Positions 8,201 through 58,114 are shown, counted from the stretch's first letter. The stretch: DNA of 64,000 nucleotides from a virus (IMGVR_UViG_3300029305_005185:96001-160000), one strand, 5' to 3'. Numbers and translations are program-made. Notes: generated from the letters alone by a model not told the origin.

Positions 8201-8653
8201 ATGATAGATGTTGCAGCATATGCGCTATTAAAACGCGGCATTACTACCGCAGGTTCCACCACTCCAGGAGTAGGCATCGTTGATGCCAAAATTGAAAATG
8301 GTCACCTAATCCTAATCATGAGTGATGGAAGCACTATTGACGCTGGCCTATTACCTACTGGCGCCGGCATAGATGACTCTGTGGTTTCTACTGAAACTAC
8401 ATGGTCAAGTGCGAAAATAGAAGAATACCACACTCAACATGTTGAAATCCGTGCTGCTGAAATTGCGCAAGAAGTCGCCGAACGCGCTTTAAGTGAATTT
8501 GTACCCGAACTAATTAGTGGTGGTACCGCAGAAAGCACAATAGAGTACATTGAAGGTGGTTCTGCCTCAGATGTAGAGCCAGATGTACTTTACGGTATGG
8601 ATGCCGATGAAGAGCCCGTAGGCGTAAAATTTGATTTTTCCGAGGAGGCGTAA
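8201..8653 (+). CDS. Virion-associated protein with repeated (L/I)xGG motifs
   Basis: GVGIVDAKIENGHLILIMSDGSTIDAG and IDDSVVSTETTWSSAKI are phage fibre motifs. Confidence 0.7.
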   Translation: MIDVAAYALLKRGITTAGSTTPGVGIVDAKIENGHLILIMSDGSTIDAGLLPTGAGIDDSVVSTETTWSSAKIEEYHTQHVEIRAAEIAQEVAERALSEFVPELISGGTAESTIEYIEGGSASDVEPDVLYGMDADEEPVGVKFDFSEEA

Positions 8654-8656
8654 CAT

Positions 8657-9355
8657 ATGGCACGTTTAATTGAACTAGAAAACCAAAAACAATGCGCCTC
8701 TTGGGGCTATCAAGGTGAAAGTGGCGCAACAATTTTAATCGCTTCTATAAGCGAATTTGCAGCCCAGTATCCAACTGGAAAACCCAATGTAATTTTCCAA
8801 CGTCATGATGGTCATCCTTATATGCACAAATTTATTCTTTCAGGGGAAAATCTCCTTATAGAATTAAATTCTACTGATACTTAGCAATGGGGAAAGTGCG
8901 AAGTTCAAATTAGCTGGCTCGTCAGCGGTAACAAAGTAATGAAGAAGAAAATTTATTCTTCCTACATTTTGCCTGGCGATCTTGAAGGTGACCTTCCACT
9001 TACAGACGAAAGTATTTTAGCTTTGGATAATTTGGAAGCTTATGTAGAAGAAGCAAAATTGCTATTAAATGAAGCAAAACAATACGCCGCTGAACTGGTA
9101 TTTGTTGAAGCATTACCCGAAGTTGGTGATAACACTAAACTTTATATTGACAAAGCAACTTCTTCTATGTATTATTGGAGTGGCGATGCCTTTATGCTTC
9201 TCAATCCTTCTTATGAATGCGATTGTGACGATAAAAAGCCTAGTCCGCCACCACCACCTCCACGTCCACCACACATTCCTTGTCCGCCAATAACAGGCGA
9301 TGGACAAGAGATTCTTTATGGTGGCAATGCTTTCTTTCCACAAGCAGAAGACTAA
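8657..9355 (+). CDS. BppU-like baseplate/adaptor protein; TAG 8882 read as Gln
   Basis: ORFs 8657 and 8939 are in one frame, separated only by TAG. Confidence 0.7.
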
Positions 9356-9399
9356 TAAATAAATCCCCACAACTAGATTAACGCAAGCAGGTGAATAAA

Positions 9400-10848
9400 A
9401 TGGCGACAGTTTTAAGCACTAAAATCATTCTTCGTAATGATACTGCGGCTAGTTGGTTAGAACACAATCCAATTCTATCTGCCGGCGAATTTGGTATTGA
9501 ATGGGATACTGGTTTATTTAAAATCGGTAACGGTACAACCACCTATAACAAATTACCATATGCCGGCGCTCCTAGTGCAAGCGGTTCTGCTATTCTAGAT
9601 GCTGATGGATATACCTTAAGCGCGAATCTAGAACGCAAACTTGGCTTAAACAAATGGGGCATAGAATACCACAAATGGGTTGGCGACCACTATGAGCTTG
9701 TTCCCGTTGATGCGAACAATCCATGGAAAATCAACTTACAACCAAAAGTCGCGCAAAACCCAACCACTGGTACCTTAGAGCTTGCTTGGTTTGAACCTTC
9801 CCCAATTTCTGCGGAAGACATTTCTGGCGCAGTTTCCGATTTACAAGAAACTGTTAATACTCTAAGTACTACTGTTGGTACAAAGGAAGATGCCGCAGGA
9901 ACTGATAGTGTTTTTGGCGCAATAGCAACGCTAGACCAAAAACATAACGAACTTGCCGCGATTTCACTTCCTCTCACCGGCGGCCAAATGACAGGTGAAC
10001 TTCTACTTGCAGACGGTTCTCCTGCAGTTTCTGAGAAAACTGTAGATGATAAGATTACCTATGCTGTCGTAAACATGGGCACACTAAAACGCAAAGTAGT
10101 TACTGTTCTTCCTGATGTGGCTGATGCTGATGAGAACACAATTTATATGATAAAGAAGGGAACTTCTTTATTAAGCAATAGTTACGATGAATATTTCTTA
10201 ATTGAAGGTACATTTGAATTAATTGGCGATACGTCTGCCGATTTGGAAGATTATATCAAAAAGCCATTAACATTCACCGAAGGAAATATTGCTTTATTTA
10301 GTAATGATGGTTCAATTAAAGATGCCGGCATTACTGCTAAAGATATATCAGAACATATTGCTGACAATGTTCTTCACATTACTGCCGAAGAACGTGCTCG
10401 TTGGAACTCTGGAACTGGTTCTGGCGAAGCTCCAATTTATATTTTCGGTTCTGGCTTACAAGCTGACAATACTGGCGCAGTAACTTTAAAAGTTGCTGAA
10501 GAAAGTAATGGTATTACCGTTAGTGATGACGGTATTGCTCTTGCTCTTGCAACCAATGAATCCGCTGGCGCGATGTCCGCTGCACAATATTCTAAAATTT
10601 CTAATATGAAAGATATTTAGGGTGTTGTTCTTGGTGATATTGTTGAAGCAGCTTTCGACCCAAAGAATCGTGTACATATTCCAATGGCAAATTCTGTAAG
10701 TCCTGGTGTTGTAGTTTCCTCTAGTGCTACCAACTCTATTGCAGTTGATATGCTTTCTGGTACCATGACCGTAAATACAATTGAAACAAGTAAACTTGTA
10801 GTTCCTGAAGGACAAGAGCTAATCTTAAATGGTGGCTCTGCTTCTTAA
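9400..10848 (+). CDS. Tail fibre-like protein with Mtd_N/hyaluronidase-N domain; TAG 10618 read as Gln
   Basis: IILRNDTAASW..HNPIL.AGE.GIE.DT..FKIGNG...YNKLPY; frame open to TAA 10846 (ELILNGGSAS). Confidence 0.8.
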
Positions 10849-10875
10849 TTTTATTAAAAAGTGAGGTAAAAATTT

Positions 10876-12627
10876 ATGGCTGATAATCATACCCTAAATA
10901 CTCGCATTAAACTTAAATATGACAGTTATGAAAACTGGATTGCAAAGGACCCTGTCCTACTAGCTGGCGAAGTTGCCATTGCTACCGTTGCTTCTAATGA
11001 TGCTGAAGGCAAGCCTGGCTTTCAAAACCTACCCAACATTGTATTCAAGGTTGGTGACGGAAGCAGCAAATACAGCGCCCTAAAGTTCGTATCTGCTCTA
11101 GCTGCTGACGTACACAGCTGGGCTAAGGCTGCTGATAAGCCTGTTTACACCGCCGCTGAAATTGATGGAATCAAGGCTTATATTGATGGCGTAATTGGCG
11201 ATCACAGTGAAATTCAAGATACTGATACCAAGTATATCATGGAAACTGTAGATGGCAACACCTATAAGTACGGTCTATATTCTACCAACAAGGCTGGCGA
11301 AAACAAGACTCTAGTATATACTCTAGACCTAAGTGGTGTAGACGGACGTCTAGATGATCTAGAAGCCGCTGTTGGTGAATCTGGTAAAGTTTCTCAACAG
11401 ATTGCTGCTGCTATTGAAGCTATCGCAGTTGCCGAAACCAACCTTGGCACCACTGAAATGTATTCTGGTTACAAGCAGGTTGGCGGTATTGTAACTCTAA
11501 ACAAGCGTACTCTAGGTATTGCTAACGTAGATGGCCTACAGACCGCTCTAGACGCTAAGCAGGACAACTTAGTCTTCGAGACTGCTTATGATGCTGCTAC
11601 CAATAAGGTTGCCACTATGGCTAACGTTACTGGTGCTATCGACGCTCTAGATAAGGCCGATGCCGCTGTTGAAAAACAGTTTGTAACCGCCGTATCTGAA
11701 GAAAATGGTATCATCACTGTAAGTCGTGCTGCTCTAAAGGCTTCTGATATTCCTAATATCACTCAGAGCCAGGTAGACGGCCTAGAAGATGCCTTAGATG
11801 CTAAGCAGGATAACCTAGTAATTGCCGACAATTACAATGCCGAAAGCAATAAGGTTGCTACCGAAGCTACCGTAACTAAGGCTGTTGCTGACTTAAATGG
11901 TGCTATGCACTTTGAAGGCGTTGCGCCTAAGGATCCCACTACCTTCACCAACAAAGAAAATGATGTTTATAGTGGTGGCGACGTCTTACTATTCGGTTAT
12001 GACGAATATGTATATGATGGAAATACTTGGCACAAGCTAGGCAACGAATCCATTTATAAGCTAAAGAGCGAAGCTGCTACCGAGCACGAAGCTATGCAAG
12101 GTGAAATTGATGCTCTAGAAGCTAATAAGCAGGATAACCTTGGCTTTGAAGGTACCTACAACAAGGACACCAACAAGGTTGTAACCAAGTCTGCAATGAC
12201 TGATGCCATCACCTCTGCTGTTGACGCCCTAGATAAGGCTGATACTGCCGTTGAGCATCAGTTCGTAACTAGCGTAAGCGAAGAAAATGGTGTTATTACT
12301 GTTCTACGCGCTCAGCCTGCTATCGCTGACGTAAATGGTCTAACCGAACGTCTAAGCGGTATTGACAGCGAGATTGCTAAGAAGCAAGATATTGTTGGTT
12401 TTGCCGATGATTACAATAAGGACACCAATAAGGCTGCGACCGTAGCAACCGTAACCAATGCTATCAATGCTCTAGACAAAGCTGATGCTGCTGTTGAAGG
12501 ACAGTTCGTTACTGCTGTACCTCAGGAAAATGGTATTGTAACCGTTTCTCGTGCTGCTGTAACCACTGACCACATCCAGCAAGGCACCAAGCCTTTCATT
12601 CTTGATTGTGGCACTGCCACTCTTTAA
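10876..12627 (+). CDS. Repetitive fibre protein with Mtd_N domain (no TAG)
   Basis: Mtd_N N-terminus; repeated ALDKADAAVE.QFVTAV.EENGI.TV.R and AKQDNL units. Confidence 0.85.
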   Translation: MADNHTLNTRIKLKYDSYENWIAKDPVLLAGEVAIATVASNDAEGKPGFQNLPNIVFKVGDGSSKYSALKFVSALAADVHSWAKAADKPVYTAAEIDGIKAYIDGVIGDHSEIQDTDTKYIMETVDGNTYKYGLYSTNKAGENKTLVYTLDLSGVDGRLDDLEAAVGESGKVSQQIAAAIEAIAVAETNLGTTEMYSGYKQVGGIVTLNKRTLGIANVDGLQTALDAKQDNLVFETAYDAATNKVATMANVTGAIDALDKADAAVEKQFVTAVSEENGIITVSRAALKASDIPNITQSQVDGLEDALDAKQDNLVIADNYNAESNKVATEATVTKAVADLNGAMHFEGVAPKDPTTFTNKENDVYSGGDVLLFGYDEYVYDGNTWHKLGNESIYKLKSEAATEHEAMQGEIDALEANKQDNLGFEGTYNKDTNKVVTKSAMTDAITSAVDALDKADTAVEHQFVTSVSEENGVITVLRAQPAIADVNGLTERLSGIDSEIAKKQDIVGFADDYNKDTNKAATVATVTNAINALDKADAAVEGQFVTAVPQENGIVTVSRAAVTTDHIQQGTKPFILDCGTATL

Positions 12628-12701
12628 TTAAATAATATGCCGACCGACTGATGTCGGTCGGCATTTTTTTCATATATAATTCTATTAAAAGGAGAATGCA
12701 C

Positions 12702-15700
12702 ATGAGTAGAAAATTAATCACCAAGATTATTCTACGCAACGATGTAACTCAAAATTGGTTACTCGTTGCCGATACCATGGTACTCCTACGCGGTGAAATT
12801 GGTTTAGAATATACTGATACTGGCGTAAAAATGAAAATAGGTGACGGCATCTCTACATGGGGACAGCTTCCTTATTTTGTTTCTGGCGCTGGCACAGCCG
12901 AACTACCTGAGAATTTTACTTGGGCTGATTTACTAGGTGTAGCCGCTGAAGGAGAAACAACCTCCACTACAAATATTGGTTTAGTAAAACCCGCTTTAGC
13001 AGATAAAGTTGATGTTAATATTTTAAATGCTAATGCTGAAATTATTGATACTAATATTTTTGACCTAACTGAAAAAATTGGTTCTTTAACTACACTTGTT
13101 GAAGAAAATGTCAATCAAATTCGTGCTACTTTAGCTGATTATGAAGGACGCATTGCGGCTCTAGAAAACAATAGTCCTGAAATTGATTCTGCTGAATTAG
13201 AAGCATTAAAAACTTCTGTTGCAGAATTAACTGAACGTGTTGTAATTCTTGAAAATCGCCAACCTACTGAAGGTGGTACTGTTGATTTCACTGAAATCAA
13301 TAATGCGATTGCAGCCTTAGACAAGCGCATTGTAGCTATAGAAGAATCTTTTGTTAAAAAAGAAGAACTAACTTCTGTAAAAGATGAATTTAATAAAACT
13401 CTTGAAAATTATACTACCAGAGAAGATTTAAGTTCTGTAAAAGAAATTGTTTACGGAAATACCGAGTGTATTACTGAAGTTGAAAATTTCGCTAAAAAGT
13501 TAGAAGAACAAGCCGGCCGTGTTAATGTATAGCTAAATGAAATGACAGAAAAAGACCTTTCTCTTGAACGTCGTATTACCACTCTTGAAGAAAATGGCGT
13601 TCCAGGTGATGGCGGTTCTGCCGAAGTAAGTCCTGAAACTCTTGCTCAAATTGAAGCTAATACTGCTAATATTGCTACTCTAACTGAAACTGTTGGTGGA
13701 TTTGACGAACGTATTACTACTGCAGAAGAAAATGCCGCGACCGCTTTAACCTTTGATGAGCGCATTACCGCTGCTGAAACTACTGTCGCTGGTTATGATA
13801 CTAAAGTTAATGCTGCCGTAGAAGCTACTCAAGCTATTACTGGTATGCAAACTACCATTAATGAAACAACCGCTCGTATGGAAGCAGTTGAAACAGAAAT
13901 GGAAGCTACCAACACTAATGTAGAAGCTATGGGTACTCGTGTTGAAGCAGCAGCTTCTGTCGTAGAAGAATTTGATGGCCGCGTAACTACCACCGAAGCT
14001 CGTTTAGAAGAATTAATTGAAGCTTCTTCTAATGGCGAACTTGACGGTGTAGCCGAAGTAGTTGATGCTCGCGTAGCAACTGATGGTACCACCTATGAAA
14101 ACTTAGGTTCTCACGTTCGTGCTTTAGGTGATGAAATCGCTTATGTAAAGAACAATACCGCTGATTTAGTTGGTGGAAAACTTGTTGATGGTCTTTCTTA
14201 TGAAGGATATATGCTACAATTAACTGCCGGCGGTAATCCTGTTGGTAACGCTGTAGAAATCAAGGGTGGTTCTGGTACTGGTACTGGTGGAGCAGGCACT
14301 TATACTGCCACTTTAACTAACCTACTAGATAGCCGTATGATTTCTGTTCCTAAAGGCGAATCTGTTGTACTAAAGTACAAGTATACTTCTGTTGATAACG
14401 AAGGGACTGACGATGGCGATGGCATCGGTGCAATTTCTGTTGAAAACGTTATCAAAGCTCGCTTCCCTGTAGCCCAAGGTGAAGTTGAAACAGATATTAC
14501 TAATTACTTAGTAAATGGTACCAACACTGTTAAATTAACTGTTGAAAACTCTGAAGGTACGGTAAAGACTATTATTTATACCGTTACTGTTATTGCTTTG
14601 ACTTTAACCACTCCCTTTGCTGAAATGAATACTTATTCTGGCGATGTGGGATTCCAATATACAATTACTGGTAATGGTGCTAAAGTAATTCATTTCATTT
14701 TAGATGACGATTATGAAGTTGGCACTGAAACTATCACTGCTGTAAATGCTACTCGTACTTTCACTATTCCAAAGCAAACTGATGGTGCTCATATTTTCAG
14801 TGTTTATGCCGAAACTGAAGCTGAAGGTACTATCATTCGTTCTGACGAATTACGTCTCGGTATGATGTGGACCTCTAGTGAAATGACTGAAAAAGCAGTT
14901 CTAGTTAATTATAACGGCGGTGAAAAGCAATAGGGTGAAATTATTCAGATTCCTTATTTAATATATGATCCATTCTCTCAAAATGCTGATGTATTCTTTA
15001 GCATTTATAATGAAGATGGTTCTTTATATTATGAATCTGAGTCTAGTATTGTAGACCAGACTGCTAAGATTTGGTCAGTACAAGATTTCCCTGAAGGAAA
15101 CACTGTTTTCCGTGTAACTGCTGGTAATAAAGAAGATACCGCGGAAACTAATGTATATGAAGAAGTTGTTATTAAGATTAATCCTTCTTCTTTCACTAAT
15201 ACTATAATTGATGATAACCTCCTACTAGACTTCAACGCTCGCAATAAGACTAATTATGTTGAAAACCCGGGCCACTGGGAATACAATGGTATTGTTGCTG
15301 AATTTGACAACTTCAACTGGGCAGAAGCCGATGGTTGGGTAACCGACAAAGATGGCGCAAGCGTACTACGCTTCCTACCTGGCGGCAAGATGGTTATTCC
15401 TTTCAAGCCTTTTGAAAGTGATATTCGTAACTCCGGTTACACCATTGAAGCAGAGTTTGCAACCAATAATGTTCGTGACTATGATAGCGTTGTAATTGAC
15501 ACTTACAGTGGCGGTCGTGGTTTGATTATTCGTTCTCAGAACGCAGCTCTAAACTCTGAACAGTCTGGTGTAGGTGTACAGTTCAAAGAAGACGCACGTA
15601 TTCGTTTGACTTTCGTAGTCGAACAGAACACTCTAAATCGTTTTGTATATGTTTATATTGATGGTATCCTTTGCGGCATCACTCAATATTCACTAACTGA

Positions 15701-18700
15701 CAACTTCAAACAGACCGACCCAGTTGATATCACTATTGGCGCTGAAACTTGTGGTCTTGACCTATATAATCTACGTTTCTATGGCCGCGCTTTTTCTATT
15801 GATGAACAACTCAACAACTTCATGTGCGACCGTTCTACTCTAGAAGAGCGTATTGCTGTTCGCGACCGCAATGCTATTACTGATGATGCTGGTAAGATTA
15901 CTGTAGACAAGATTAGTCTTTCTATCCCCTACATGATTATGGAATGTCCCGAACTTCCTCAATTTAAGGGTGATAAGAAAAAGAAGATGTCTGTAAAATA
16001 TGTTGATGGATTACATCCCGATTATAGTTTCGAGGCAACTGGATGCGAATTTGACGTACAGGGTACTTCTTCTGCTGGTTATCCCGTAAAGAACTTTAAA
16101 GTAAAATTAAAGAGTGGATTAACCTATACTGCTTCTGGCGAATATGCTGACGGTTGGTTATTTGATAAAGAAAACTCTCTACCCACTGAAGTATTCTGCT
16201 TAAAAGCTGACTACGCTTCTTCTGAACACGCTAATAACGTAATGTTAGTTGACTATTATGATAAGGTAAGCCCATATCGTATGCCTCCTCAGCAGATTGA
16301 TGACCGTGTTCGCAGTGGCGTAAATGGTAAGGCTATTATTGTTTTCTGGCACAATACCGATACTGGTGAAGTAACCTTCTAGGGTTGCTATAACATGAAT
16401 GATGATAAGTCTAATGAACAGACCTTTGGTTTCGTAGATATTGATGTTACTTCTTTAATTCCTGAACCTCGCATTGAATGCTGGGAATGGTGTAACAACA
16501 ATAATGACCTAGTTCTTTTCCTTGATGACGCCGCATTTGACCAAACTAAGGTTGATGAAGACGGTAAGCCCTATCCCGCTTGGCAGGATGACTTTGAACC
16601 TCGTTTCCCAGACTTAGATGACCATATGTATGGCGAACAAGAGGGCGAACTTGATAAACTACGTCGTATGGTTAGTTGGGTAGTTTCCACTAACCAAAAA
16701 ACAGCAACCAATAATATTATTGCTCCAGTAACCTTACCTCATTATTTAACTGGTGTACCAACTGAATATGCAGTTGATTCTGCTGAATATAGATTAGCGA
16801 AGTTCAAGTCCGAATTTGAAGATTACTTTGAAATGGATGCAATGACTTTCTACTATATCTTCACCGAAGTATTCCTCATGGTTGATAACCGTGCTAAGAA
16901 CATGTTCTTAACCACTTTTGATGGCGATCATTGGTTCCCAATTCCTTACGATATGGATACTGCGATTGGTATTAACAATGAAGGTGCTCTTGCCTTTGAA
17001 TATCACCTTGAAGATACTGACTATGTAGATGACGAGAAAGTATACAATGGTCAGGATAGCGTACTATGGATTAATTTCCGTATGTGCTTCCCCTCTGAAA
17101 TCCGCACTATGTATCAAGAACTTCGTTCTAACAATGAGAATCCTTTCTCTTACTAGGCTATTTACGAAAAGATGAAGAAACACCAAGAAACTTGGCCTGA
17201 AGTTGCTTGGAACTGGGATGCTCAGTTTAAGTATCTTGAGCCTTTCCATCTTGGTTCTAACAACCTTGCCATGCTACAAGGTAACAAAGCTTCTCAGCGA
17301 GATTGGTGGCTATATAATGCCTTTAAGTATCGCGATAGTAAATATCAGGCTGGTGAGTCTTTAACCAATTATATTCACCTTCGTTTATATGAAGCCGGTG
17401 AAATCAATATCGTTCCTTATTCTCACTTATACACTCGTGTTAAGTTTGGTCAAGCCAAAGACGAGACTCAAAGAACATTCCGTGACCAAACCGCTTGCTT
17501 CACTACTGAAGGTATTGCTGACTTAAATGACCTTGAAACACACATTTATTCTGCTGACCGTCTAGTAGACATCGGCGACTTAAGTGCTTTAAAGATTGGT
17601 TATTGTGACGTTTCTCCTGCTATTAAACTTGGCCGACTAATCCTCGGTAGTGAAGCAGATGGATATACCAATCCCAACTTAAAGACCTTAAACATTGGTC
17701 GTAATGAATTACTACAAGAGATTAATGTAAGTAACTGTACTGGTCTTGGTACTCCCGATAAAACTGGTGCTATTCCTACCGCCGTTATTGACGCTAGCAA
17801 GTGCCCCAGCCTTGAAGTACTAAAGGCAAAGGGAACTTCTGTACTCGGTGCTAACTTTACTGATGGTGGCCGTCTACGTGAAGTATATCTACCTGGTACT
17901 GTAACTTCCATTACTCTACGTAATCAGCATAACCTAGAAACCTTTGAACTAGAAAGCTACGCTAATATTTCTACCATCTTAATTGACAATACCGCTAATA
18001 TGCCTATTGAAGAAATGGTAGCAAATGCCGGCAAACTTGACCGTGTTCGTATTACTAATTAGTCTTGGAATGCCACTGATGAAGCTTCTCTATTGGCTAC
18101 TGTCCGTAAGTTAGCTGCTTGTGACGGTTTAAGTGCTGATGGTTCTACTACATTAGAAAATCAGCCTATCGTAACTGGTCGCGCGCATGTAGCTTCTATT
18201 AGTGAAGCAGCTCTTGAAGAAATCAATACTCTATTCCCAGAACTAATTGTTGTTGTAAATGGAGTACCAAAACTCTTTATGCGCTATCTAAACTACGACA
18301 ATACTCTACTCTATCGTTATGTAATTAACGCTGGTGAAGATGCTATTGATCCAATTGCGAAGGGTTATATCAGTGCTCCCGATCGCGCGGATACTGAAAC
18401 TGCAGAATATACCTTTATTGGTTGGTCTGAACTACCCACTAACGTACAGAAAGCTTATAACATTGTTGCTAAGTATGATGGACGTTTCCGCGTAGATTTT
18501 ACTAATCTTGAGGGTGAAGTTATTAATTCTCAATGGATTCTTGATGGCGAAGATGCGGTAGAACCCGTTTCTAGTGGCTTGGTAAATGCTCCTGTTAAAG
18601 AAAGTACAGCACAATATGATTACGAATTTGCTGGTTGGGATCGTAGCTTTATTAAAGTTGAAGAGCCTTTGGTTCTAAAACCTCTATTCAACCCAATTCT

Positions 18701-19625
18701 TCGTAGTTATAAAGTATTCTTCTATAATGATTCTACATTAATTGAAGAACACACTATCTTCTATGGTAGTACTGCTACTTTCACTGGAGATACTACTAAA
18801 ATTAAGAAAATCATTGGCGGAGAAGAAAGTATTTATTATGAATTCACTGGTTGGTCACCAAGTCCTGATAAACCAATTATTAGTAATACTTGGTATTATG
18901 CTGAATTCTCATTTAATGGCTATATTACTGATAGTTGGGAAACTATCGCTGCTGCCGCTAAAGCCGGGGATGTAAGTGCTTATGGCTTAGGCGGACGTAA
19001 GATTTTAGAATATAGTGTTAACGGAGTAAGTTATTCCAAAATTGAACTTGAAATTGTAGGAAAAAATCATGATATTCTTGCAAAAGAAGATAGTTCCTAT
19101 AACGGTGGTTCAGGAAAAGCCGCTTTAACATTTATTGCAAAATTAATAGGTGATGAAGCCCGTATTATGAACCAAACTCAGCATTCTATCGGTGCTAATA
19201 GCTCTCTAAATACTGGCGGCTGGGCAGTTTCTGATATGCGTCTATGGATGCAGAATACTCTTTGGGTAGCAATGCCCGCTGAATTACAAGCCGCTATCAA
19301 ACCAGTCATTAAAAAAAGCGATAATGGTTTCTTCGTTTCTACTATTCGTGAAACTGAAGACACATTATGGTTGCCTTCTGATCGTGAACTTAACTGCGAA
19401 AATACTGGCTTGGTTCTCGCTGGACAGGGCGAACCGTATCCTGTTTATACTGACGCAGCTAGTCGCAAGAAATAGAATAAGGGCGGTGGCTTAAAACTAT
19501 ATTGGACTCGTTCTACTGGTCGTGAAGGATAGCATTATTATCGTTACATTGATAGCCAAGGTAACGGTGGTAATCTAGGCGCGGCTTCTCAAAACCTTGG
19601 TGTAGCCTTTGGCTTCTGTATCTAA
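12702..19625 (+). CDS. Giant 2307-aa virion protein: Mtd_N, coiled coil, beta-sandwich/LamG-like, CotH-like kinase, LRR-like, InlB-B-like repeats, DUF6273/C-type-lectin-like end; 7 TAG read as Gln
   Basis: Six track ORFs share one frame, broken only by TAG (13530, 14931, 16380, 17154, 18060, 19473, 19530); motifs MVDNRAKNMF..YDMDT, YTFIGWS, YWTRS..GVAFGFCI. Confidence 0.85.
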
Positions 19626-19639
19626 GGAGGAAAACTAAT

Positions 19640-20141: not shown

Positions 20142-22961
20142 ATGGCATAGAAAGTTCTTAAAACTCGTATAAAACAAAGAATAGATACTGCCGAAAACTG
20201 GGCTCAAATTGCTGAAGCTCCATTAGAAGGCGAAATTATTATTTATAAATCAACAGACGATACAATCCCTGATAAAATAAAAATTGGCGATGGCGCGACT
20301 ACCGCTTCTAATTTACCTTTTATTACCGATGTTGATACTAATAATCTTTCCGCCGGCGTTCGCATTCCAGAGAGCGACACTAATTCTCTCGGCTCTGTTA
20401 CTCAGGGTATTTATTGGGAAAATGGTCGTCCTCAATTAATGTCTTACACTTTAGGTAAGAGTGTTCCTTCCAACGCAGTATTTACTGATACAAACACCAA
20501 AGTTACTTCTGCCGCTAATCACTATGCACCACAGACAGATAGTGCTTCTGCTTTAAATGTTGATGCTTCTAGTACAACTGCGGCAACTTGGGGTTCTACT
20601 AGTTTGGTTACTGGTGTTAATCTAACTCGTGATGCTAAAGGACACGTAACTGGCATGACAGTTGATTCAATTAAGATGCCATCCGACCCAACTTATACTT
20701 TACCTACAGCAACTTATAATACTCTTGGTGGTGTAAAACCTGCTTACACTTCAACTGGTTCTGCTACGCTAACTACTGCCGCTGCAACGAATACTACTAC
20801 TCCTACCATTCAAAAGAAATCTACTACTTCATCTCGTTATTATGGCGTAGAAGCAGACGTAAATGGTATTTTATTTGTTAACGTTCCTTGGACTGGTGAT
20901 ATTACTGGTGTAACTGCTGGCGATGGTTTAACCGGTGGCGGTTCTTCTGGTTCCGTAACGCTAAAAGTTGGCGCTGGCGCTGGTATTACTGTTAGTGCTG
21001 ACGCAGTTGGACATACTAACAGTGTAACTGCGGATACCGCTTCCGAGGGTGGCTCTGCTCGTACTTTGGCTCATGGTGGTACTTTTAATATCCCAAGTGT
21101 TACTTATGATACTGAAGGTCATATCACAGCAAAAGGTTCTACCACCTTAACTCTACCAAGTCTTCCCAACGCAGGTACAAGTGCGGGCGTTGTAAAGTCT
21201 GGTGGCGTAGCTACTATTGCTGATGGTGTAATTACTGCTGTTAGCGGCGCTAGCAATGCAGATACCGCAGGCACTGCTAATAAAGTAGCTAATTCTCTAT
21301 CAATTCAAGGCAATGGAACTGGTATTACTTTTGATGGTTCTGCGGCTAAAACTGTAAATATTAAAGGTTCTGGCACCGTTTCTGTAACTGGCAATACCAG
21401 TGGTGTAATTACTATTACTGGCTCAGCCCATCCTACTGCTTTAAAGAACCCAAATGCGTTGACTATAGATGTAAATGGAACTTCTACTTCTTACGACGGT
21501 TCTTCTACTAAGACTGTAACTATTAATGCCGCGGCTTTAGGTTTATCCAGTGCTATGCAATTTGGCGGCGTTGTAACTTCTTTACCAACATCAAGTACTG
21601 CTGGTACTGTTGTACTAATGGGTAATAAGGAATATGTATACGATACCAATGGAAATTGGGTTGAACTTGGTGACGAAGGAAGTCATGCTTTAAAAACAAT
21701 TAAAGTTACTGCTAATGCTGGTTTGACTGGTGGTGGCACTCTTGCTTCTGATATGACTATTGGTCATGCTAATAGCATCACCGCGGGCACCGCGCAAGGT
21801 AGCAGTGGTACATTAAGTCATGGCGGAACATTTACTATTCCTAAGATTACTTATGATGCTTATGGTCATATTACTGGCGCGTCTACTACAACTTATACAT
21901 TACCTGCTGATAGCAATACTCACTATACTGCTAACTTATATTTAGGTGCTTCTGGCGCTTCTTCTAATGCTACTACCGCAGTAAGCAATCCTTACTTAGT
22001 ATTACGTGAAAATAGCACTACAAGAAACAATATTCAATTAAAAGGTAGTTCTGGCATTTCTGTAAGTGGTGCAAGCGGAGTGGCAACTATTGGACATACC
22101 AACTCTGTTACCGCTGCTACCGCATAGGGTTCCGCAACTGGCACTTTAAGTTTTGGTGGAACATTTACAATTCCCACTATTACTTATGACGCTCAAGGAC
22201 ATATTACTGGTAAGGGCACTACAACTCTTACTATGCCAGCGAACCCCAATACCGATACTCACTGGACAGCCAACTTAATTACTGGCGCTTCTGCCACAGC
22301 GACCGCTAATGCGGCAGCATCTGATGGTAGCGTTTATTTGAACTTAATTGAAAATGGCAGTGTTCGCAATTCTCATCTCATTGATGGCGCGGGTACTGTT
22401 ACTGTTACTAGTGATACAAATGGCAAAATTACTATTACTGGTTCTGCGCATCCAACAGTTAATAATGCCAAGATTACCCTTAGTGCTGGTACTGGTCTAA
22501 CTGGCGGCGGAGATTTTACTCTAAATCAATCTGGTGCAGAGACAATTTCCTTTGGACATAGTAATAGTGTTACTGCTGGCACAGCGCAAGGCGGTAGTGG
22601 CCAGTTAAGTCATGGTGGTACTTTTACTGTACCTACTATTACCTATGACGCACAAGGTCACATTACTGCTAAAGGTACTACTACTTATACCTTACCTACT
22701 GACAATAACACAGATACCAAAGTAACTCAGGCAGCGGCAATTGCTACTAATGGTAATTATCCTGTTCTACTTGCTTATAGTACATCTACATCTTCTGTAA
22801 CTAATACTGTAAATAAGAGCACAACTTTGTTATATAATCCTTCTACTGGAACATTAAGTGCTACCAAGTTCAGTGGTAATGGTAATTCCTTAACAGATAT
22901 TAATGCAGTCCAATTAACTCTTGCTGATAGCGATGAATTGATTCTTGACTGTAATGATTAA
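20142..22961 (+). CDS. Gly/Thr/Ser-rich tail fibre with Mtd_N domain; TAG at codon 3 (20148) and 22125
   Basis: SD GGAGG; MA(Q)KVLKTRIKQRIDTAENW..; repeated TFTIP.ITYDAQGHIT units; ends LILDCND. Confidence 0.85.
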
Positions 22962-23040
22962 TAAAACTTAAAGGGCTGGCTGGAATGATGCCAGCTCTAT
23001 TTTCCAATATCTGGAATGATGATATAAAGGAGATGTTATT

Positions 23041-25169: not shown

Positions 25170-25204
25170 TCAGTTAGTTAATTTGGTTTCGGTGAGGGAT
25201 GTTT

Positions 25205-25405
25205 ATGCAAGTTGTAAGACTTTGTTAGAGAAATGACATTGAAGCTAATTGGAAGATTAGTAATCCCGTACTATATATGGGAGAAATCGCAGTTAGTATT
25301 GACGTCAATAATCTCAAAATCGGTGATGGAAAAACCGCGTGGAAAGACTTGCCATATTATATGTAGTCTCTAACCGATGAAGAAATTTTGGCGTTATGTA
25401 AATAA
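25205..25405 (+). CDS. Stand-alone Mtd_N-like protein (66 aa); 2 TAG
   Basis: C(Q)RNDIEANW.ISNPVL.MGEI......LKIGDGKTAWKDLPY; not in ORF track. Confidence 0.75.
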
Positions 25406-51409: not shown

Positions 51410-52594
51410 ATGGCGACTAGTACGCTAAAAACAAGAATAAAACATAAAATTGATACTGCTTCCAATTGGGCAAGTTCTAGTCTTGTTCCATTGGAAGGTG
51501 AATTAATTATATATAAAGGCGATAAACCACAAATAAAAGTCGGTGATGGTTCTACTACAGTTGGAAGTTTACCATTTATCAAGGCCGGCAGTGACACAAC
51601 AATTACATAGGCATTAACAAGTGGAACGGAAATTGGTAGTATTAATATTGATGGAGTGGCAACGAAGTTGTATGCTCCTTCTACTATTGCTTGGAGTAGC
51701 GTGACTAGTAAGCCAAGTTACTATGATGCAAAAGCTATAAAATCTATTACTCGTTCTGGAACGACTTTTACCTGGACTTGTATGGATGGTACAACAGGGA
51801 CTTTTACATAGTAGGATAATAATACGACTTATTCGGCCGGAACTGGACTTACTCTTTCTGGAACTACATTTAGTTTAAACGCCACGGCAACAAAAACAGC
51901 ATTAGGATTGGGTAGTAATGCCTATACAAGTACTGCTTATTTGCCACTCACCGGTGGTTCGATGAGTGGAGCTATTGTAGCTTAGCCAAGTGCGAAAAAC
52001 ACTTTTTTATTATGGGGATCTTCGACAGATAAAAATTCATCTTATGACATCCCTTGGTATGGTTTGTCTTTTTATAATGATGGAGTATAGCAGGGAAATG
52101 CACTTGCACTGGCTAACTATTGGGGAATTAATTTTATTACTGCTGGAGATAGTAATACTCATTTATATCATAATGGAAATTTGATATTAAATACATCTAA
52201 TTATACCAATTACGCTCCAACCAAAACAGGTTCTGGTGCGAGCGGAACTTGGGGCATAAATATAACAGGATCTTCTGCAAGTTGTACTGGTAATGCGGCG
52301 AGAGCGGGATTTATTACTTGTGAAGATAACAGAGCTACTATGGCAACTCCAAATGAATATACAATGGGAGCAGATTTAGAGTTTAAATCTGCTGAAGCAA
52401 CTGGATTATCTGGTTATTCTGCTGTATTAACAGTAAAACCTTGGACTGATAGCTCAGGAGGCGTAGTTCATTAGTTAGCTTTTAATGCGTCTGGACTCTA
52501 TCATCGAATTTCCACTTCAAATTTAGCTTCTTGGGGATCTTGGTGCAAATTATGGCAAGCCGGAGATGCTGTTACTGGCGCAGTTTGGAATTAA
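51410..52594 (+). CDS. Tail fibre with Mtd_N domain; 6 TAG; ends GAVWN
   Basis: One frame; TAG at 51608, 51809, 51812, 51983, 52088, 52472; TFT(Q)(Q)DNNTTY. Confidence 0.85.
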
Positions 52595-52674: not shown

Positions 52675-54363
52675 ATGGCAAAATAGTTAAATGCAAGAAT
52701 AATTACAAAGCATGATATAGAAGCCAATTGGGAAAAAGCATTGACTTTTATTCCAAAATTAGGCGAAATCATTATTTATGAGACACCAGACAAAATAATT
52801 CCTAACAAATATGACTGGACTAGCATACCTAGATTAAAAATTGGCGATGGAAAAAGTACAATTAATGAATTGTTTTTTATTACCGATGCTTTTGTTTAGA
52901 AAAAAAATGGTTGGGATTTGTCTGAAAATAATTATACTGATACTCATTGGGGTATTGTAAATAAAATAGCAAATTTAGGTTATGAACCAAAATATACTGA
53001 TACAACTTACACCGCGGGAAAAGGTTTGGGCTTAAAAGTAGAAGAAGGAGAAAATGTTTTTTATAACACTGGTATCATTTCAATTTAGGGTTCAGAAAAA
53101 AACGGTTTTATTAAATATCGTTTAAATACTGGTCTTAATGATAGTGATTATAGGGACATTGAAATTGGCATTCCGGGCTTACAACAAACTGCTTTTACTC
53201 CTTTATCCAATTTCTTAACCTCAGATTCTTTAATAAAAATTAATAACTCTATTACTAAACTAGAATCAAGCACAACTCCCGGTTCATTGAAATACACTAA
53301 TGCTGTTGGAGAAACGGGTTTGGTCGCAGTTCCAGGATTGGGTAAGTTGGCATTTAAAGATGGATTTGATGGGGATTTTATTGAGGTTGTAGAAGTAGCT
53401 GTTTAGAGTAATTAGCCCAATGACGCTATTCCAATTTGGATTAATCCTAGTGGAGAAGATAATTTAGGAATATTAAAATATTATAATAGTTATACATAGT
53501 CTTATGTTAATATAGATATAGGAGTAAAAAAAATAACTCCACTTACTGGGGGCTTTTCAAAATATGGTTTTATTGCTACGGATGGTGCTACAGAAGAAAG
53601 CTATCAATTTGGAGTTTTAGGTATTAATAATAAAAGTGACGAACCTGGTACTTTATTGGTCGAATTTAATGGAAGCACTTATGATCTCGTACTTAAAACA
53701 AATCTTACTTTTTCTTCTGGAACACAAAACGGTAGCTTTTCAGTTACTTAGAATGGTGAAACTAAAAATATTCCAATTTATGGTCTTGGTTCTAATGCCT
53801 TTACTTCTACCGCCTATCTTCCTCTTGCAGGTGGTACTGTTACTGGTGTAACCGCTTTTTCAAATACAACAAATTCCACCTCAACTTCTACCGGCGCCGT
53901 TAAAATTTCAGGTGGCTTAGGCGTTGCAAAAGATATATATGGAGCTAAAGTTCATGGCTCTGTATATAATGACTATGCTGAATACCGTCAATCTGAAGAA
54001 CTTATTGAACCCGGATATATTGTTTATTCTGGTGACGATGGAATCTTACATAAAACTGTTGGACGTTTACAATTCTTTGAAGGTATAGTTTCCGACACTT
54101 TTGGTTTTTCAATCGGTAAAACAGATAAAGCTCAAACTCCACTAGCAGTGGCTGGACGCGTGCTTGTATATACAGATGAAGAACTCCATGCCGGCAATGT
54201 AGTTTGCGCTGGTCCGAATGGTAAAGCATGTAAAATGACAAAATAGGAAATTAAAGACCACCCAGATCGTATAGTTGGAGTTGTTTCTGAAGTTCCGAGT
54301 TATGAAACTTGGGGAGAAGAAAATATTTCTGTAAATGGAAGAGTTTGGATTAGAGTAAAATAA
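52675..54363 (+). CDS. Tail fibre with Mtd_N and peptidase G2-like chaperone; 8 TAG
   Basis: SD GGAGG; MAK(Q)LNARIITKHDIEANW; GSVYNDYAEYR..PDRIVGVVSE; invisible in the standard-code track. Confidence 0.85.
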
Positions 54364-55992: not shown

Positions 55993-56445
55993 ATGTCAAA
56001 GATAGATTCCTTCACCGATAAATATGCTTTCATGAGTAATTTTTCTTATTCTCCTATGGAATTTGACGGCATTATAGTTCCCACGGCAGAACACGCTTTT
56101 CAAATGATGAAAGCAACGACACGCGAAATGATGGAGTTTGTTGCTCTTGCTCCGACTGCTTCGCAGGCTAAATCTCGCGGTCGCGGAGTAAAACTGCGTG
56201 GTGATTGGGAGCAGATTAAGTTTGATGTAATGTATCGTATTCAGCAAGAAAAATATAAGCAAAATCCTTACATCGCCGCCGCACTGATTGCTACTGGCGA
56301 CGCAGAACTTGAAGAAGGTAACTGGTGGCATGATAATACATGGGGAAACTGTAAGTGTGAACGGTGCCGCGACATTGAAGGACATAACATGCTTGGCAAT
56401 ATTTTGATGAAAGTGAGAAAAGAACTTTATGAAGAAAAAAATTAA
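55993..56445 (+). CDS. NADAR family protein
   Basis: FMSNFS, PTAEHAFQMMK, WEQIK..VM..K, EGNWWHD..WG, N.LG.ILM.VR; promoter 55848-55876. Confidence 0.9.
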   Translation: MSKIDSFTDKYAFMSNFSYSPMEFDGIIVPTAEHAFQMMKATTREMMEFVALAPTASQAKSRGRGVKLRGDWEQIKFDVMYRIQQEKYKQNPYIAAALIATGDAELEEGNWWHDNTWGNCKCERCRDIEGHNMLGNILMKVRKELYEEKN

Positions 56446-57003
56446 TTTTAATAATCTAACGCTTGAAGAAGCAAAGAATTATGCTTTTGAATCTATGTTT
56501 GTATCGGCTTTCAAATTTGATTATGGTGATACTTATACCATTGATAAATTTATTAAATTGGTAAAAGATACTTCTATTATGGATTACGATGGTATTGGTT
56601 ATGCAGCGTTTGAAATTGAAGGCCATCTTTATGAATTTAAAGAAATGGAAATTTATTGTGATGTAGACTGGCTTGAAAAAAAGAAAGAAATGGGTATTAC
56701 TCATATTAGATGGTATAACAAATGATTACAGTAATTAAAAATGGTAAAGCAAAACGTGTATGTTGTCCTCATTGTGAAAGTCTTTTAGAATATGAAGTTG
56801 GCGACTTAATGATGGGCGGCTCGGTTGGAAAATTTTATTATTATTTGCCTTGCCCCGTATGTGACGAAGAGATTGTTGGAGATTATTTTAAGGTATTGAT
56901 TGAATGCTCTTCTGGCAGAAAGAAAACTTATAAAAAATTAGGAAAAGAACAGTATACTTATGTAGATTTTGGCGAACCTCAACGGCTTGATAGACCATTA
57001 TAA
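56429..57003 (+). other. Two small hypothetical ORFs (56429-56725; zinc ribbon 56722-57003)
   Basis: ORF track; coupled; CPHC..CPVC. Confidence 0.6.
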
Positions 57004-57029
57004 ATAAATAAGAAAGGAAATAAAACAAA

Positions 57030-57485
57030 ATGACTCTTGAAATTCTACAGAATGAAATGATTACTGCCATGAAGAATGGCGACAAATTTACTAAGACTAC
57101 CATTAGTGGTCTTATTGCTCAGATTAAAAAGGCAGCAATTGATAAGGGCTGCCGCGATAACATTACCGAAGAGTTTGTAAATGCCGAACTTCTCAAAGCG
57201 AAGAAGCAGGCACAGGAAAGTATTGACGGCGCTGTCGCCGCTGGTCGTGAAAATTTGATTGAGGAATATTCAAAACAGTTTGATATTATCAATCTCTTTG
57301 CTCCTCAGTTGATTCAAACTATTGCTGATATTCATGAAATTATTGACGTCAAGTATGAAGGTCCCATTACTAAAAAGGACCTTATGAAGTGGCTAAATAC
57401 TAATTATCGCGGCCGCATGGATATGGGCGTCGCCGCGCGTGTAGTTGATGGTTTGGTGAAAGGAGCACAGCAGAGTTCGCTATGA
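57030..57485 (+). CDS. GatB/YqeY domain protein
   Basis: EMITAMKNGDK..I.G..A.IK...K..KQ.QESI.....GRE.L..E......I..FAPQL..MK. Confidence 0.85.
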   Translation: MTLEILQNEMITAMKNGDKFTKTTISGLIAQIKKAAIDKGCRDNITEEFVNAELLKAKKQAQESIDGAVAAGRENLIEEYSKQFDIINLFAPQLIQTIADIHEIIDVKYEGPITKKDLMKWLNTNYRGRMDMGVAARVVDGLVKGAQQSSL

Positions 57486-57847
57486 TGGAAGGTATTGAAA
57501 TTCTTTCGATTGGCTCTATTGGGATTAATCAGGTATTTAATTGGAATGCCGCAATTGCCGGCGGGCTTGTATTAGGATTTTTATGTAGTCTTTATGTTTT
57601 CTTTAGCACAGATAGCTTACTTGCTGGTATAACTGCTTTTATAATTTTGGGACTTTTCTTTGGTTTTATACTTGGTATCAGTGTAGAAAAATATGCTGAT
57701 ACTATGCCGACTTATAAAGTAACTGTTAATGATACAATTAGTATTAATGAATTTTATGAACGATATGAAGTCTTAGAACAAGATGGAAAAATCTTTACGA
57801 TTAAGGAAAAAACAGAAAATGGCAGTAACGGCTTACCCGCGTCGTGA
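57482..57847 (+). CDS. Membrane protein
   Basis: Two TM helices. Confidence 0.65.
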   Translation: MMEGIEILSIGSIGINQVFNWNAAIAGGLVLGFLCSLYVFFSTDSLLAGITAFIILGLFFGFILGISVEKYADTMPTYKVTVNDTISINEFYERYEVLEQDGKIFTIKEKTENGSNGLPAS

Positions 57848-58114
57848 TACGGAAGAAAATTGGATTAAAAATAATCCAATTTTAAAAAAGATGAAATTTG
57901 TGTAGTTTATACAGATTATACCGGTACCATGTATAAAAAAGGAAACGGTAATTCAAGATATACTGAGTTACCTTTCCTTCCTTTAGAAGAAGTGCTTGAA
58001 CATGGTATAATGTATTCTAATGGGATTACTGTTAAAGTTAGAGGTTTCTTTAATGAAAATGCAGGAGAACAAAATGAAGAACAAGTATATTGTCCGGGAG
58101 AATTCGTCTGGTAA
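57819..58114 (+). CDS. Stand-alone Mtd_N-like protein needing a -1 frameshift at A AAA AAG (57884-57890)
   Basis: RRDTEENWIKNNPILK in frame 0 continues as DEICVV..YKKGNGNSRYTELPF in frame -1. Confidence 0.6.

Follow-up and report, generated by a model that had tools for sequence, protein, structure and literature searches.

The long tail fibre of phage T4 (gp34-gp35-gp36-gp37) consists of separate segments that are encoded by neighbouring genes and joined end to end, and in the baseplate of phage TP901-1 BppU (ORF48) holds the BppL receptor-binding trimers via its folded C-terminal domain. [quoted passage not shown] In Bordetella phage BPP-1 Mtd sits at the ends of the tail fibres (PMC2408619), and passages on this founding Mtd_N protein presume that its N-terminal prism holds it on the fibre (PMC2408619, PMC10743442).

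Here, we compare with these systems a fibre module found in the window, i.e. the whole stretch of 64,000 nucleotides that was analysed, which is a piece of a 181-kb gut phage contig. We suggest, with a probability of about 0.7, that its fibre proteins are linked by a connector of a C-terminal peptide (plug) and an Mtd_N domain (socket) and that this chain has its root in the baseplate. This joint belongs with the known docking-peptide fibre joints, in a new form. Serial end-to-end segments encoded by adjacent genes recall the T4 fibre, the joints of which are idiosyncratic in contrast with a peptide/domain pair that would be reusable across phage families. As in the Klebsiella phages, the joint would be formed by a short conserved peptide of one fibre protein that meets a small domain of another; there, however, it is the incoming protein that brings the peptide and the carrier that has the domain, whereas in the window phage the C-terminal peptide belongs to the carrier and the N-terminal Mtd_N to the incoming protein. 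Moreover, sequences and folds of the Klebsiella joint are unrelated to plug and Mtd_N, which would recur in series, up to 3-4 times, and are found in sipho-, podo- and myovirus-like genomes, and neither Pfam nor PHROGs reported a KP32-type branching (T4 gp10-like) domain in the proteins scanned. The window system would work like the KP32-type branched RBPs but is not classed as a member. BPP-1 has one joint as opposed to 11 heads in the window phage, but the gene ahead of mtd (bbp9) ends in a plug as well (..GLADLGGIA, judged by eye); Mtd itself (PDB 1YU0) was missed by our head HMM. The plug is the new part; the passages on BPP-1 name no motif of a fibre partner (PMC2408619, PMC10743442).

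The phage that bears these fibres is siphovirus-like in character and TAG-recoded. Most fibre genes are broken under translation table 11 and whole with TAG as Q, which turns 12651..19625 into a single ORF with 7 in-frame TAG. The features by which TAG-recoded phages are recognised were found: late genes contain TAG in frame, a tRNA gene of anticodon CUA lies at 54928-55018, and relatives have Gln where the phage has TAG. At the position of the one TAG of 8657 (codon 76) 23/23 aligned homologues carry Q, and P0003 has Q at the TAG site of 9400. On this sequence evidence TAG is probably read as glutamine in the window phage.

Nine Mtd_N-headed genes had been counted in the first-pass annotation. 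Eight are intact, but the ninth (57819) changes frame at an A6 run (A_AAA_AAG) that splits the gene, and is Mtd_N only once a -1 shift is applied; 24647, likewise taken as continuous before, has an ATG with a good RBS and its FLD frame lies at +1 past an A7 run at 24656-24662. Only four heads pass the gathering score of Pfam PF18454 (Mtd_N, 26.3 bits), i.e. 25199 (38.0), 9400 (37.5), 23041 (30.1) and 51410 (27.3 bits). In the same scan 10876 stays under this score with 14.5 bits, 20142 and 52675 gave no match and 12702 was not listed. A non-circular head HMM, trained only on the four Pfam-positive heads, recovers 20142 (E 1.8e-18), 12702 (3.2e-14), 52675 (2.8e-12) and 10876 (4.3e-10) and two further Mtd_N genes outside the window (genome 9363-12293 and 7557-9029, minus strand). 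The genome has 11 heads in total and fewer plugs, and 4/11 heads directly follow a plug-ended gene. In all 8 intact window genes Mtd_N lies at most 35 residues from the start of the stop-to-stop ORF and about 10 from Met (Table 1).

Table 1. Genes and peptides of the fibre module (window coordinates)
Gene	Position	Strand	Feature
8201	8201..8653	+	Small fibre-module protein, 150 aa
8201	8507-8533		Plug ELISGGTAE (GGxA), on predicted-disordered tail
8201	8546-8572		Plug YIEGGSASD (GGxA), on predicted-disordered tail
8201	8585-8611		Third related peptide VLYGMDADE
8657	8657..9355	+	Putative BppU-like baseplate protein, 232 aa: beta domain 1-105, helix 117-146, Pro/Cys-rich variable linker, C-end plug
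8657	9308-9334		Plug EILYGGNAF
9400	9400..10848	+	Fibre segment, 482 aa
9400	9400-9561		Mtd_N head
9400	10816-10845		C-terminal plug ELILNGGSAS
10876	10876..12627	+	Fibre segment, 583 aa
10876	10876-11088		KYD-type Mtd_N head
10876	12592-12624		C-terminal plug PFILDCGTATL
12702	12702..19625	+	Putative giant distal adhesin, 2307 aa; C-terminal DUF6273 (C-type-lectin-like) domain
12702	12702-12875		Mtd_N head
20142	20142..22961	+	Repeat-rich fibre, 939 aa
20142	20142-20321		Mtd_N head
20142	22935-22958		Plug-like C-end ELILDCND, without GG
23041	23041..24570	+	Mtd_N-headed tip protein, 509 aa; Peptidase_G2-like C-terminal chaperone domain (..YGAVWNDYAEYR..RIWIKIK at the end)
24647	24647..25169	+	Small fibre protein with FLD head (..KKFLDQEGVQYLWSKV..)
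24647	25116-25154		C-terminal tail ..LSTEEIDAAIAAATPAN
25199	25199..25405	+	Candidate adaptor with Mtd_N head, 68 aa
25199	25367-25402		C-terminal tail SLTDEEILALCK, directly after Mtd_N head
51410	51410..52594	+	Mtd_N-headed tip, 394 aa
52675	52675..54363	+	Mtd_N-headed tip, 562 aa; long insert in head
57819	57819..58114	+	Small Mtd_N-headed ORF
57819	57884-57889		A6 run that interrupts the ORF

The plug core is hydrophobic-hydrophobic-x-G-G-x-A. Within the genome it is confined to the ends of the consecutive genes 8201, 8657, 9400 and 10876, to 20142, where it is degenerate, and to a single small ORF that is unrelated; the four consecutive genes and a 95-aa ORF at genome positions 16044-16328 have the only plug-like ends among 294 genome ORFs (5/294). 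A strict pattern, [ILVF]I[LY][DNG][GC][GN], is met three times in 217,920 six-frame genome residues (0.65 expected from composition), each time 1-4 residues before the C-end of an Mtd_N-headed gene. The terminal peptide is real: in 8201, 8657, 9400, 10876 and 20142 it was found where the first-pass annotation had put it, and the receptor-like tips 12702, 23041, 51410 and 52675 lack it as described there. Searched with an HMM for the C-terminal module of 9400 (33 aa), the paralogues gave no significant match (20142 E 0.8, 8657 E 4.6, 10876 E 8.5).

Over hundreds of homologues that are divergent elsewhere the plug is nearly invariant. Homologues of 9400 keep it in 88/104 cases, 2-12 aa from the end, and about half of these bear a non-Mtd_N N-terminal domain. 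G222, G223 and A225 of 8657 are invariant in 23/23 rows, with a preceding linker that varies from 0 to 40 aa, and the plug tail of 8657 is predicted to be disordered. At least one GGxA is present in the last 70 aa of 57/58 homologues of 8201, and two in 35/58; the 8201 tail has a pLDDT <50 in an AF2 model that is poor as a whole (pLDDT 55). The 10876 family comprises 2773 proteins at E<=1e-3, and head and plug are both present in 116 of its best 150 representatives. The relatives found for 20142 have only body repeats in common.

The motif is also a neighbour of Mtd_N genes in other phages. IMG/VR counts are not independent, because the loci are related gut phages picked by the motif: with ELILNGGxA at the C-end an Mtd_N head begins 15-170 nt downstream in 35/37 loci (the remaining two stop too early to judge), as opposed to 1/12 loci with the match away from the C-end; the next gene is Mtd_N in 58 and another in 11 ORF pairs with plug, versus 16 and 289 in those without; an alternative head B has a plug upstream in 0/12; and plug subtypes follow head subtypes. 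In 12 distant cultured phages, selected ahead of seeing their sequences, a plug ends the gene upstream of 10/18 Mtd_N genes, in 10/12 phages, with examples in BPP-1 (bbp9), S-CBS3 (gp08, gp18), Arthrobacter phage Popper (gp29), Pseudomonas phage Epa5, Xanthomonas phage AhaSv, Cellulophaga phage phiST, Gordonia phage Banquo and cyanophage PSS2. Seven of the 18 are without upstream plug (ReqiPepy6 4/4, Ranunculus 2/3, S-CAM8), and Streptococcus Javan161 shows half the motif only (..KIILDGRRDR at the end). When [ILVFMY][DN][GCS]G is searched for in the last 14 aa, 7/233 distant-phage ORFs carry it and 7/7 are located directly upstream of an Mtd_N gene (Fisher p about 1e-9); phage Brigit, without Mtd_N, has no plug in 65 ORFs. 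Motifs, conservation and adjacency are direct observations, and the co-occurrence check that had been proposed finds peptide and Mtd_N correlated in both sets.

A 3+3 complex of the 9400 C-end and the 10876 Mtd_N, the trimeric state being an assumption, was predicted with custom alignments in a set-up unlike the calibration of the tool, in which the ipSAE mark was reached by 58/80 solved complexes and 2/110 mismatched pairs. This complex check, also proposed earlier, yielded ipSAE values of 0.88/0.89/0.89 and 0.00 for the best of three controls, but the prediction is unable to assign a head to a plug because close cousins of the true partner also pass. Partner pLDDT was at least 87 and at least 98% of contacts were common to the runs. 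The predicted interface involves ..TS.LVV..GQELILNGGSAS of 9400 and residues 1-17, 20-21 and others of 10876, with ELILNGGSAS positioned on the first strand of Mtd_N. The plug-Mtd_N contact is a predicted one; the model and the cross-phage co-occurrence both support the original proposal that the peptide may dock the Mtd_N of the next protein. The plug would be a hydrophobic strand followed by G-G-x-A, at a fibre end or on a disordered tail, and the socket the trimeric N-terminal Mtd_N of the protein that follows. The plug strand would pair with the first Mtd_N strand (..TRIKLKYD..) and the G-G-x-A turn would pack against the signature Asp and Trp of Mtd_N. We infer fibre order, branching and the sharing of about 6 plugs by 11 heads: gene order suggests a chain from 8657 (plus 8201 with its 2-3 plugs) via 9400 and 10876 to 12702, and a second one from 20142 to 23041.

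The putative anchor of the chain is 8657. Foldseek relates its model to the NF5 baseplate (9m8o_P, E 4e-6), the N-domain of TP901-1 ORF48 (3uh8, E 4e-4), TP901-1 baseplate chains (4v96) and the 80alpha baseplate (6v8i), overall with E 4e-6 to 5e-4 and probability 1.00 but TM-scores of only 0.3-0.58 at a model pLDDT of 72; Pfam (including BppU_N) and PHROGs gave no match. This suggests a BppU-like fold, and therefore a fibre chain rooted on the baseplate. Like BppU, 8657 would have an N-domain plus helix fold and would join the Dit ring to receptor-binding proteins, but it ends in a flexible Pro-rich linker and a 7-residue plug instead of a folded C-terminal domain. It also contains an internal LPLTDESILAL at 8993-9025.

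The peptide could instead nucleate trimerisation like a foldon, in fibres without a globular or chaperone C-domain, its adjacency to Mtd_N being inherited gene order. Members of the 9400 and 10876 families indeed have the motif as the second strand of a conserved C-terminal strand-turn-strand (..SKLVVPEGQELILNGG.., ..NDLVQTxGDxLVFNCG..), the final two strands of 9400 might also serve folding, and tips with a Peptidase_G2-like chaperone domain are without the motif. However, the 8657 and 8201 families keep only the 7-residue core, often in tandem on variable or disordered linkers and once despite loss of the preceding domain; the adjacency recurs in unrelated lineages with unrelated carriers (the 65-aa Popper gp29, the 792-aa Epa5 tail protein, bbp9); and the predicted complex seats the peptide on Mtd_N and not only on itself. 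We regard this explanation as rather improbable, and both roles can coexist. Slightly less credence is given to a docking or recognition tag for a target other than Mtd_N, such as a site on the baseplate or capsid, an assembly chaperone or an enzyme that processes Gly-Gly. It would account for heads outnumbering plugs, for the many Mtd_N genes without upstream plug, for the plug in 9400 homologues with a non-Mtd_N head and for the 95-aa ORF, which ends in EVLLNGGIL and is not followed by an Mtd_N gene; it is opposed by the specificity of the plug for genes directly upstream of Mtd_N in distant phages, by its absence ahead of head B and by the zero scores of the prediction controls. Conservation at the DNA level, e.g. 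of a GGNGG signal for ribosome binding or coupling of the following gene, or of a hot spot where fibre modules are swapped by recombination, fits high-GC phages in which plug Gly codons lie just ahead of the next start (S-CBS3 gp18/gp19 overlap) but is very improbable given synonymous variation at every motif codon (21 distinct loci), separate Shine-Dalgarno sequences in intergenic DNA, terminator-like hairpins between 10876 and 12702, internal and tandem copies distant from any start and absence of the motif from other genes that need ribosome sites too.

Besides the plug/Mtd_N connector there is probably an independent second one, in which a ..[ST]xxEI[DL].. tail would be joined to an FLDxxGxxxLW head. 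The same neighbour arrangement of ..ITxxEID.. tail and FLDxxGLxxLW head recurs across 118 other loci; with the tail present the next gene is FLD in 40 cases and another in 44, and with the tail absent 21 are FLD and 1565 neither. Gene adjacency in other phages therefore lends support to the second pair of the first-pass annotation, and 25199, with an Mtd_N head and a tail of this type, would turn one connector type into the other. Tentatively, and with more doubt than confidence, tailed phages might use a common, small combinatorial code of connectors that comprises at least two orthogonal peptide/head pairs (C-terminal ..hydrophobic-hydrophobic-x-GGxA with Mtd_N, C-terminal ..ITxxEIDxx with an M..FLDxxGLxxLWxKIK head), with subtypes setting specificity and adaptors converting pairs. 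If so, fibres would be wired serially or branched by exchanging about 10-60 residues, and in the window phage 11 heads would compete for about 6 plugs. Two genes of the module moreover lie behind frame changes at poly-A runs, and the set of tips might thus differ from virion to virion.

Among the tips, 23041 scores 23.7 bits (E 3.7e-5) against Peptidase_G2 (PF11962), under the cut-off of 25, and 52675 gave no PF11962 match in the Pfam scan, but its C-terminal chaperone-like domain is similar to that of 23041. Judged by eye, ..AV[WY]NDYAEYR..GRIWI.. up to the C-end is common to both and to two proteins outside the window, and 51410 ends in ..GAVWN, precisely where the chaperone domain of its paralogues starts.

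The short peptides that the first-pass annotation had listed at the ends of several virion proteins were all found at their positions, and judged by its distribution their core (hydrophobic-hydrophobic-x-G-G-x-A, called plug here) behaves as a short linear motif. Within the 217,920 six-frame residues of the genome the strict plug pattern occurs three times versus 0.65 expected, and in all three cases it lies 1–4 residues from the C-terminal end of a gene that starts with the Mtd_N domain (Pfam PF18454). Plug-like ends are present in five of 294 ORFs of this genome, namely in the consecutive genes 8201, 8657, 9400 and 10876 (named, as all genes here, after their window start) and in one small ORF elsewhere. 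Of 104 proteins in the 9400 family, 88 retain the motif 2–12 residues from the end, and about half of these 88 homologues have a different N-terminal head domain on the homologous body. The 10876 family comprises 2773 proteins at E ≤ 1e-3, and among its best 150 representatives both head and peptide are found in 116. For 8657 the G-G-x-A is invariant (23/23), the preceding stretch of 0 to 40 residues with Pro and Cys is variable, and one family member even keeps G-G-x-A with the entire preceding domain absent. Members of the 8201 family contain at least one plug copy in 57 of 58 cases and two in tandem in 35. The plug tails of 8657 and 8201 are disordered in AlphaFold2 models, the latter of which (pLDDT 55) was of insufficient quality for fold comparison. 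With an HMM of the 33-aa C-terminal module of 9400 the paralogues were not recovered significantly; related-locus searches led to a single distant locus for 9400 and, for 20142 with its ELILDCND end, to nine loci that have only body repeats in common with it.

A scan of IMG/VR with the back-translation of ELILNGGxA yielded 49 loci, and in 37 of them the peptide is located 0–6 residues before the stop. An Mtd_N head starts 15–170 nt downstream on the same strand in 35 of these 37 C-terminal loci; in the remaining two the sequence stops within 80 nt. When the peptide was situated away from the C-terminal end (12 loci) an Mtd_N head was detected once, in a genuine multi-plug protein. Among the ORF pairs of these loci, a plug-ended ORF precedes an Mtd_N gene in 58 cases and another gene in 11; an ORF without plug precedes Mtd_N in 16 cases, head B (an alternative N-terminal head that takes the place of Mtd_N on homologues of the 9400 body) in 12 and other genes in 277. 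Since the IMG/VR loci belong to related phages and were ascertained by the motif, we added 12 cultured phages of various hosts, picked from Mtd_N match lists before the sequences were seen, as a second test set. Here the directly upstream gene carries a plug for 10 of 18 Mtd_N genes (the upstream assignments of S-CBS3 gp08 and Banquo gp30 come from annotation tables). Half of the motif is found upstream in Streptococcus Javan161, and an upstream plug is missing for seven Mtd_N genes, i.e. all four of ReqiPepy6, two of Ranunculus and one of S-CAM8. All plug-pattern ORFs are genes directly upstream of Mtd_N (7/7 within 233 ORFs, two checked by hand; Fisher p ~1e-9), and the direction of the link from plug to Mtd_N is exclusive in the cultured set. 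Brigit, which has no Mtd_N, shows no plug in 65 ORFs. Peptide and domain are thus correlated across phages in both sets, in agreement with the docking proposed in the first-pass annotation.

Plug-ended genes of cultured phages and the Mtd_N genes that follow them
Phage	Plug-ended gene	C-terminal end	Next gene
BPP-1	bbp9	..GLADLGGIA	mtd
S-CBS3	gp08		gp09 (Mtd_N)
S-CBS3	gp18		gp19 (Mtd_N)
Arthrobacter Popper	gp29	..TLDGGNATSTYDGSFNFDGGSAA	gp30 (Mtd_N)
Ranunculus	gp33		gp34 (Mtd_N)
Pseudomonas Epa5	upstream gene	..IIFDGGGA	Mtd_N gene
Xanthomonas AhaSv	upstream gene	..YVLDGGGA	Mtd_N gene
Cellulophaga phiST	gp029		gp030 (Mtd_N)
Gordonia Banquo	gp30		gp31 (Mtd_N)
Cyanophage PSS2	gp066		gp067 (Mtd_N)

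Subtypes are paired in IMG/VR as well: E[LF]ILNGGxA precedes ..LKYD..NW heads, F[DN]CG[ST].. precedes ..QKHD..NW heads and a terminal ..I[DN]GG[EN]A precedes ..LRND...W heads. This pairing could result from specificity or from common descent.

A physical contact is predicted too. The C-terminal 75 residues of 9400 and the N-terminal 100 residues of 10876 were modelled together in three copies each (alignment for each), giving ipSAE values of 0.88, 0.89 and 0.89 versus 0.00 for the best of three controls, a partner pLDDT of at least 87 and at least 98% of contacts common to the runs. The ipSAE mark is attained for 58 of 80 solved complexes and for 2 of 110 mismatched pairs, figures that are only rough for a multi-copy set-up with own alignments. 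Confident contacts connect ..TS.LVV..GQELILNGGSAS of 9400 with residues 1-17, 20-21, 23-24, 26, 29, 34 and 66 of 10876; in the model Leu479 lies on R10-K12 and the conserved Ala484 on D16 and W21, which are signature residues of Mtd_N. The model thus predicts binding of the peptide by Mtd_N trimers, as had been hypothesized, and supports the view that the plug of 9400 binds the Mtd_N of 10876. Searched by sequence with the profile of Mtd_N, the PDB returned isolated HylP hyaluronidases only and no complex in virion context. The plug might instead be a foldon-like folding element; such a role agrees with the strand-turn-strand seen in both the 9400 and the 10876 family, but the bare motif on variable linkers and the adjacency of plug and Mtd_N across lineages do not fit it, and folding and docking could also coexist. 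Plugs without a neighbouring head could bind some other partner. Conservation as a DNA-level signal is rejected, since plug codons vary synonymously and the real ribosome sites sit in the spacers outside the plug, which means that the constraint acts on the protein.

Phage fibres are modular and their N-terminal domains anchor them. The principle of a joint between peptide and domain is already known: experiments on Klebsiella podophages showed that two receptor-binding proteins are joined by a small domain and a conserved peptide (PMC13352976). The joint of our phage is predicted from sequence and model, and its polarity is reversed, with the plug on the C-terminal end of the carrier and Mtd_N on the N-terminal end of the incoming protein. 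The prism of Mtd presumably holds this protein on the fibre (PMC10743442). In the literature searched, mostly outside subscription journals and supplements, we found no named partner site for the Mtd_N head and no description of the plug motif, of the reversed polarity, of serial use and spread over unrelated phages or of the second connector pair treated below; the proposed partner motif of Mtd_N is new in this sense. If the seven-residue plug predicts the carrier of each fibre, fibre architecture becomes readable from sequence. A docking plug would also account for the hold of BPP-1 on Mtd, make sense of gut phages with a dozen fibre genes and represent a very small handle for laboratory fibre swapping, comparable to the Klebsiella branching-domain/peptide pair.

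The nine Mtd_N heads counted before in the window are upheld as eight intact ones and the interrupted 57819. The whole genome contains ten intact heads and one interrupted, because the frame of 57819 (57819-58114) has to shift by -1 at A_AAA_AAG (A6 run 57884-57889), a classical slippery heptamer, before Mtd_N can be read. The unshifted frame meets a TAG four codons past this site; programmed shifting, phase variation and decay are possible explanations of the frame change. The Pfam cut-off is passed by 9400, 23041, 25199 and 51410, with 10876 weak and no Pfam match in 20142, 52675 and 12702. An HMM from only the four positive heads recovers 20142, 12702, 52675 and 10876 at E 2e-18 to 4e-10 and two additional Mtd_N genes beyond the window; ten heads share one aligned signature, G-E...K-I-G-D-G...L-P. 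Among cultured phage records the head has 398-501 matches. Head B has no copy in the genome of our phage. Its motif, ..MSMPKAMNRTNPxPLDASAVW..YAAT..AYVGQ.., is seen in the homologues P0017-P0076 and in Brigit gp27 (20655-20969). In gp27, which is encoded in a cluster between the terminase and portal genes, an acidic ..ATDSEVSEMLSEVF.. tail is joined immediately to this head.

A Peptidase_G2-like chaperone domain terminates four Mtd_N-headed proteins. 51410 ends with ..TGAVWN (52560-52594), exactly at the junction of ..YGAVWN and DYAEYR.. (24100-24140 in 23041) at which the chaperone-like domain starts in 52675, 23041 and a further two genes beyond the window; 51410 seems to have lost this domain by a cut at gene level. 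The 2307-aa giant 12702 possesses a C-terminal DUF6273 domain (19100-19625, E 1.7e-9), a lectin-like domain that is a frequent target of diversity-generating retroelements. The 3' end of 12702 has no template-like repeat anywhere in the contig, and there is thus no sign of such a retroelement.

At the presumed root of the fibres, the model of 8657 (pLDDT 72) matched BppU-type baseplate proteins of NF5, TP901-1 and 80alpha in Foldseek (E 4e-6 to 5e-4, TM-scores modest). BLASTP of 8657 gave no significant match to Brigit gp25 (E 2.3). The model fits a siphovirus baseplate protein that presents its plug on a flexible linker. From gene order the chain would run 8657, 9400, 10876, 12702 and a second one from 20142 to 23041, with 8201 supplying two or three further plugs. 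A plug-ended neighbour is absent for seven heads and about six plugs face 11 heads, which leaves competition of tips for plugs or additional attachment sites as explanations. All four public runs contain a contig in which 10843 (end of 9400) is linked to 22891 (close to the end of 20142) by 25 letters of other sequence. Its depth is 3-4 times that of the contigs of the phage itself; it may stem from a relative without the intervening 12 kb or be a chimeric local match. The contigs of these runs, which may be the window's own samples, revealed no insertion or deletion in 8000-26000, rare variants being hidden by contigs.

The second proposed pair, an FLDxxGLxxLW head and an ITxxEID tail, is apparently borne out by adjacency in other loci. 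The head scan found 150 matches in 118 loci, 149 of them within 25 residues of the ORF start, and the gene directly upstream usually ends with ..[AS]I[TP]xxEIDxxxx. Dereplicated ORFs comprise 40 with tail and next FLD, 44 with tail and another gene, 21 without tail and with next FLD and 1565 with neither. The window contains one FLD head (gene 24647/24681), two EID-type tails (24681 and 25199) and an internal copy of the tail within 8657. 25199 consists of an Mtd_N head and an EID-type tail and nothing else, as would be expected of a candidate adaptor between both connector types. Brigit encodes three neighbouring small proteins with related acidic tails. The start region of the FLD gene (24634-24670) has a strong AAGGAGG site together with an ATG at 24647; the conserved frame is +1 downstream of ACT TAG and of an A7 run (24656-24662), which a 748-nt contig of a public run covers with identical letters.

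Further features of the genome (window coordinates unless marked)
Feature	Position	Strand	Remarks
149-aa ORFs	282-731 and 2970-3419
176-aa ORFs	974-1504 and 3568-4098
Lysis enzyme	49671-51056		SpoIID, NlpC/P60 and SH3_3 domains; 6 in-frame TAG
tRNA, anticodon CUA (suppressor)	54928-55018	+	91 nt
95-aa ORF	genome 16044-16328, outside window	+	plug-like end EVLLNGGIL; no Mtd_N gene after it
4075-codon ORF	genome 55349-67633, outside window	-	between tube-like genes and 605-aa + 1443-aa pair

The window represents bases 96001-160000 of a single contig of 180,867 bp. With the standard code most fibre genes are fragmented, and TAG read as Gln gives whole ORFs (e.g., 2324 codons with 7 TAG); the TAG of 8657 falls in an alignment column with Gln in 23/23 sequences. 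The tRNA(CUA) exceeds an ordinary tRNA in length. TAG codons are concentrated in fibre and lysis genes, often among the first 25 codons (codon 3 in 20142, 4 in 52675, 10 in 25199 and 22 in 23041). Outside the window the minus strand encodes terminase, portal, scaffold-like and capsid-like genes, two tube-like genes and the 4075-codon ORF, and this layout is siphovirus-like. A tape-measure role of the latter ORF would imply a very long tail. The fibre genes lie apart from the structural genes, mainly in 8-25 kb and 51-54 kb of the window. Between 280 and 5560 equal-sized ORFs without Pfam matches repeat about 2.6 kb apart, open on both strands, and the GC content is higher (0.44).
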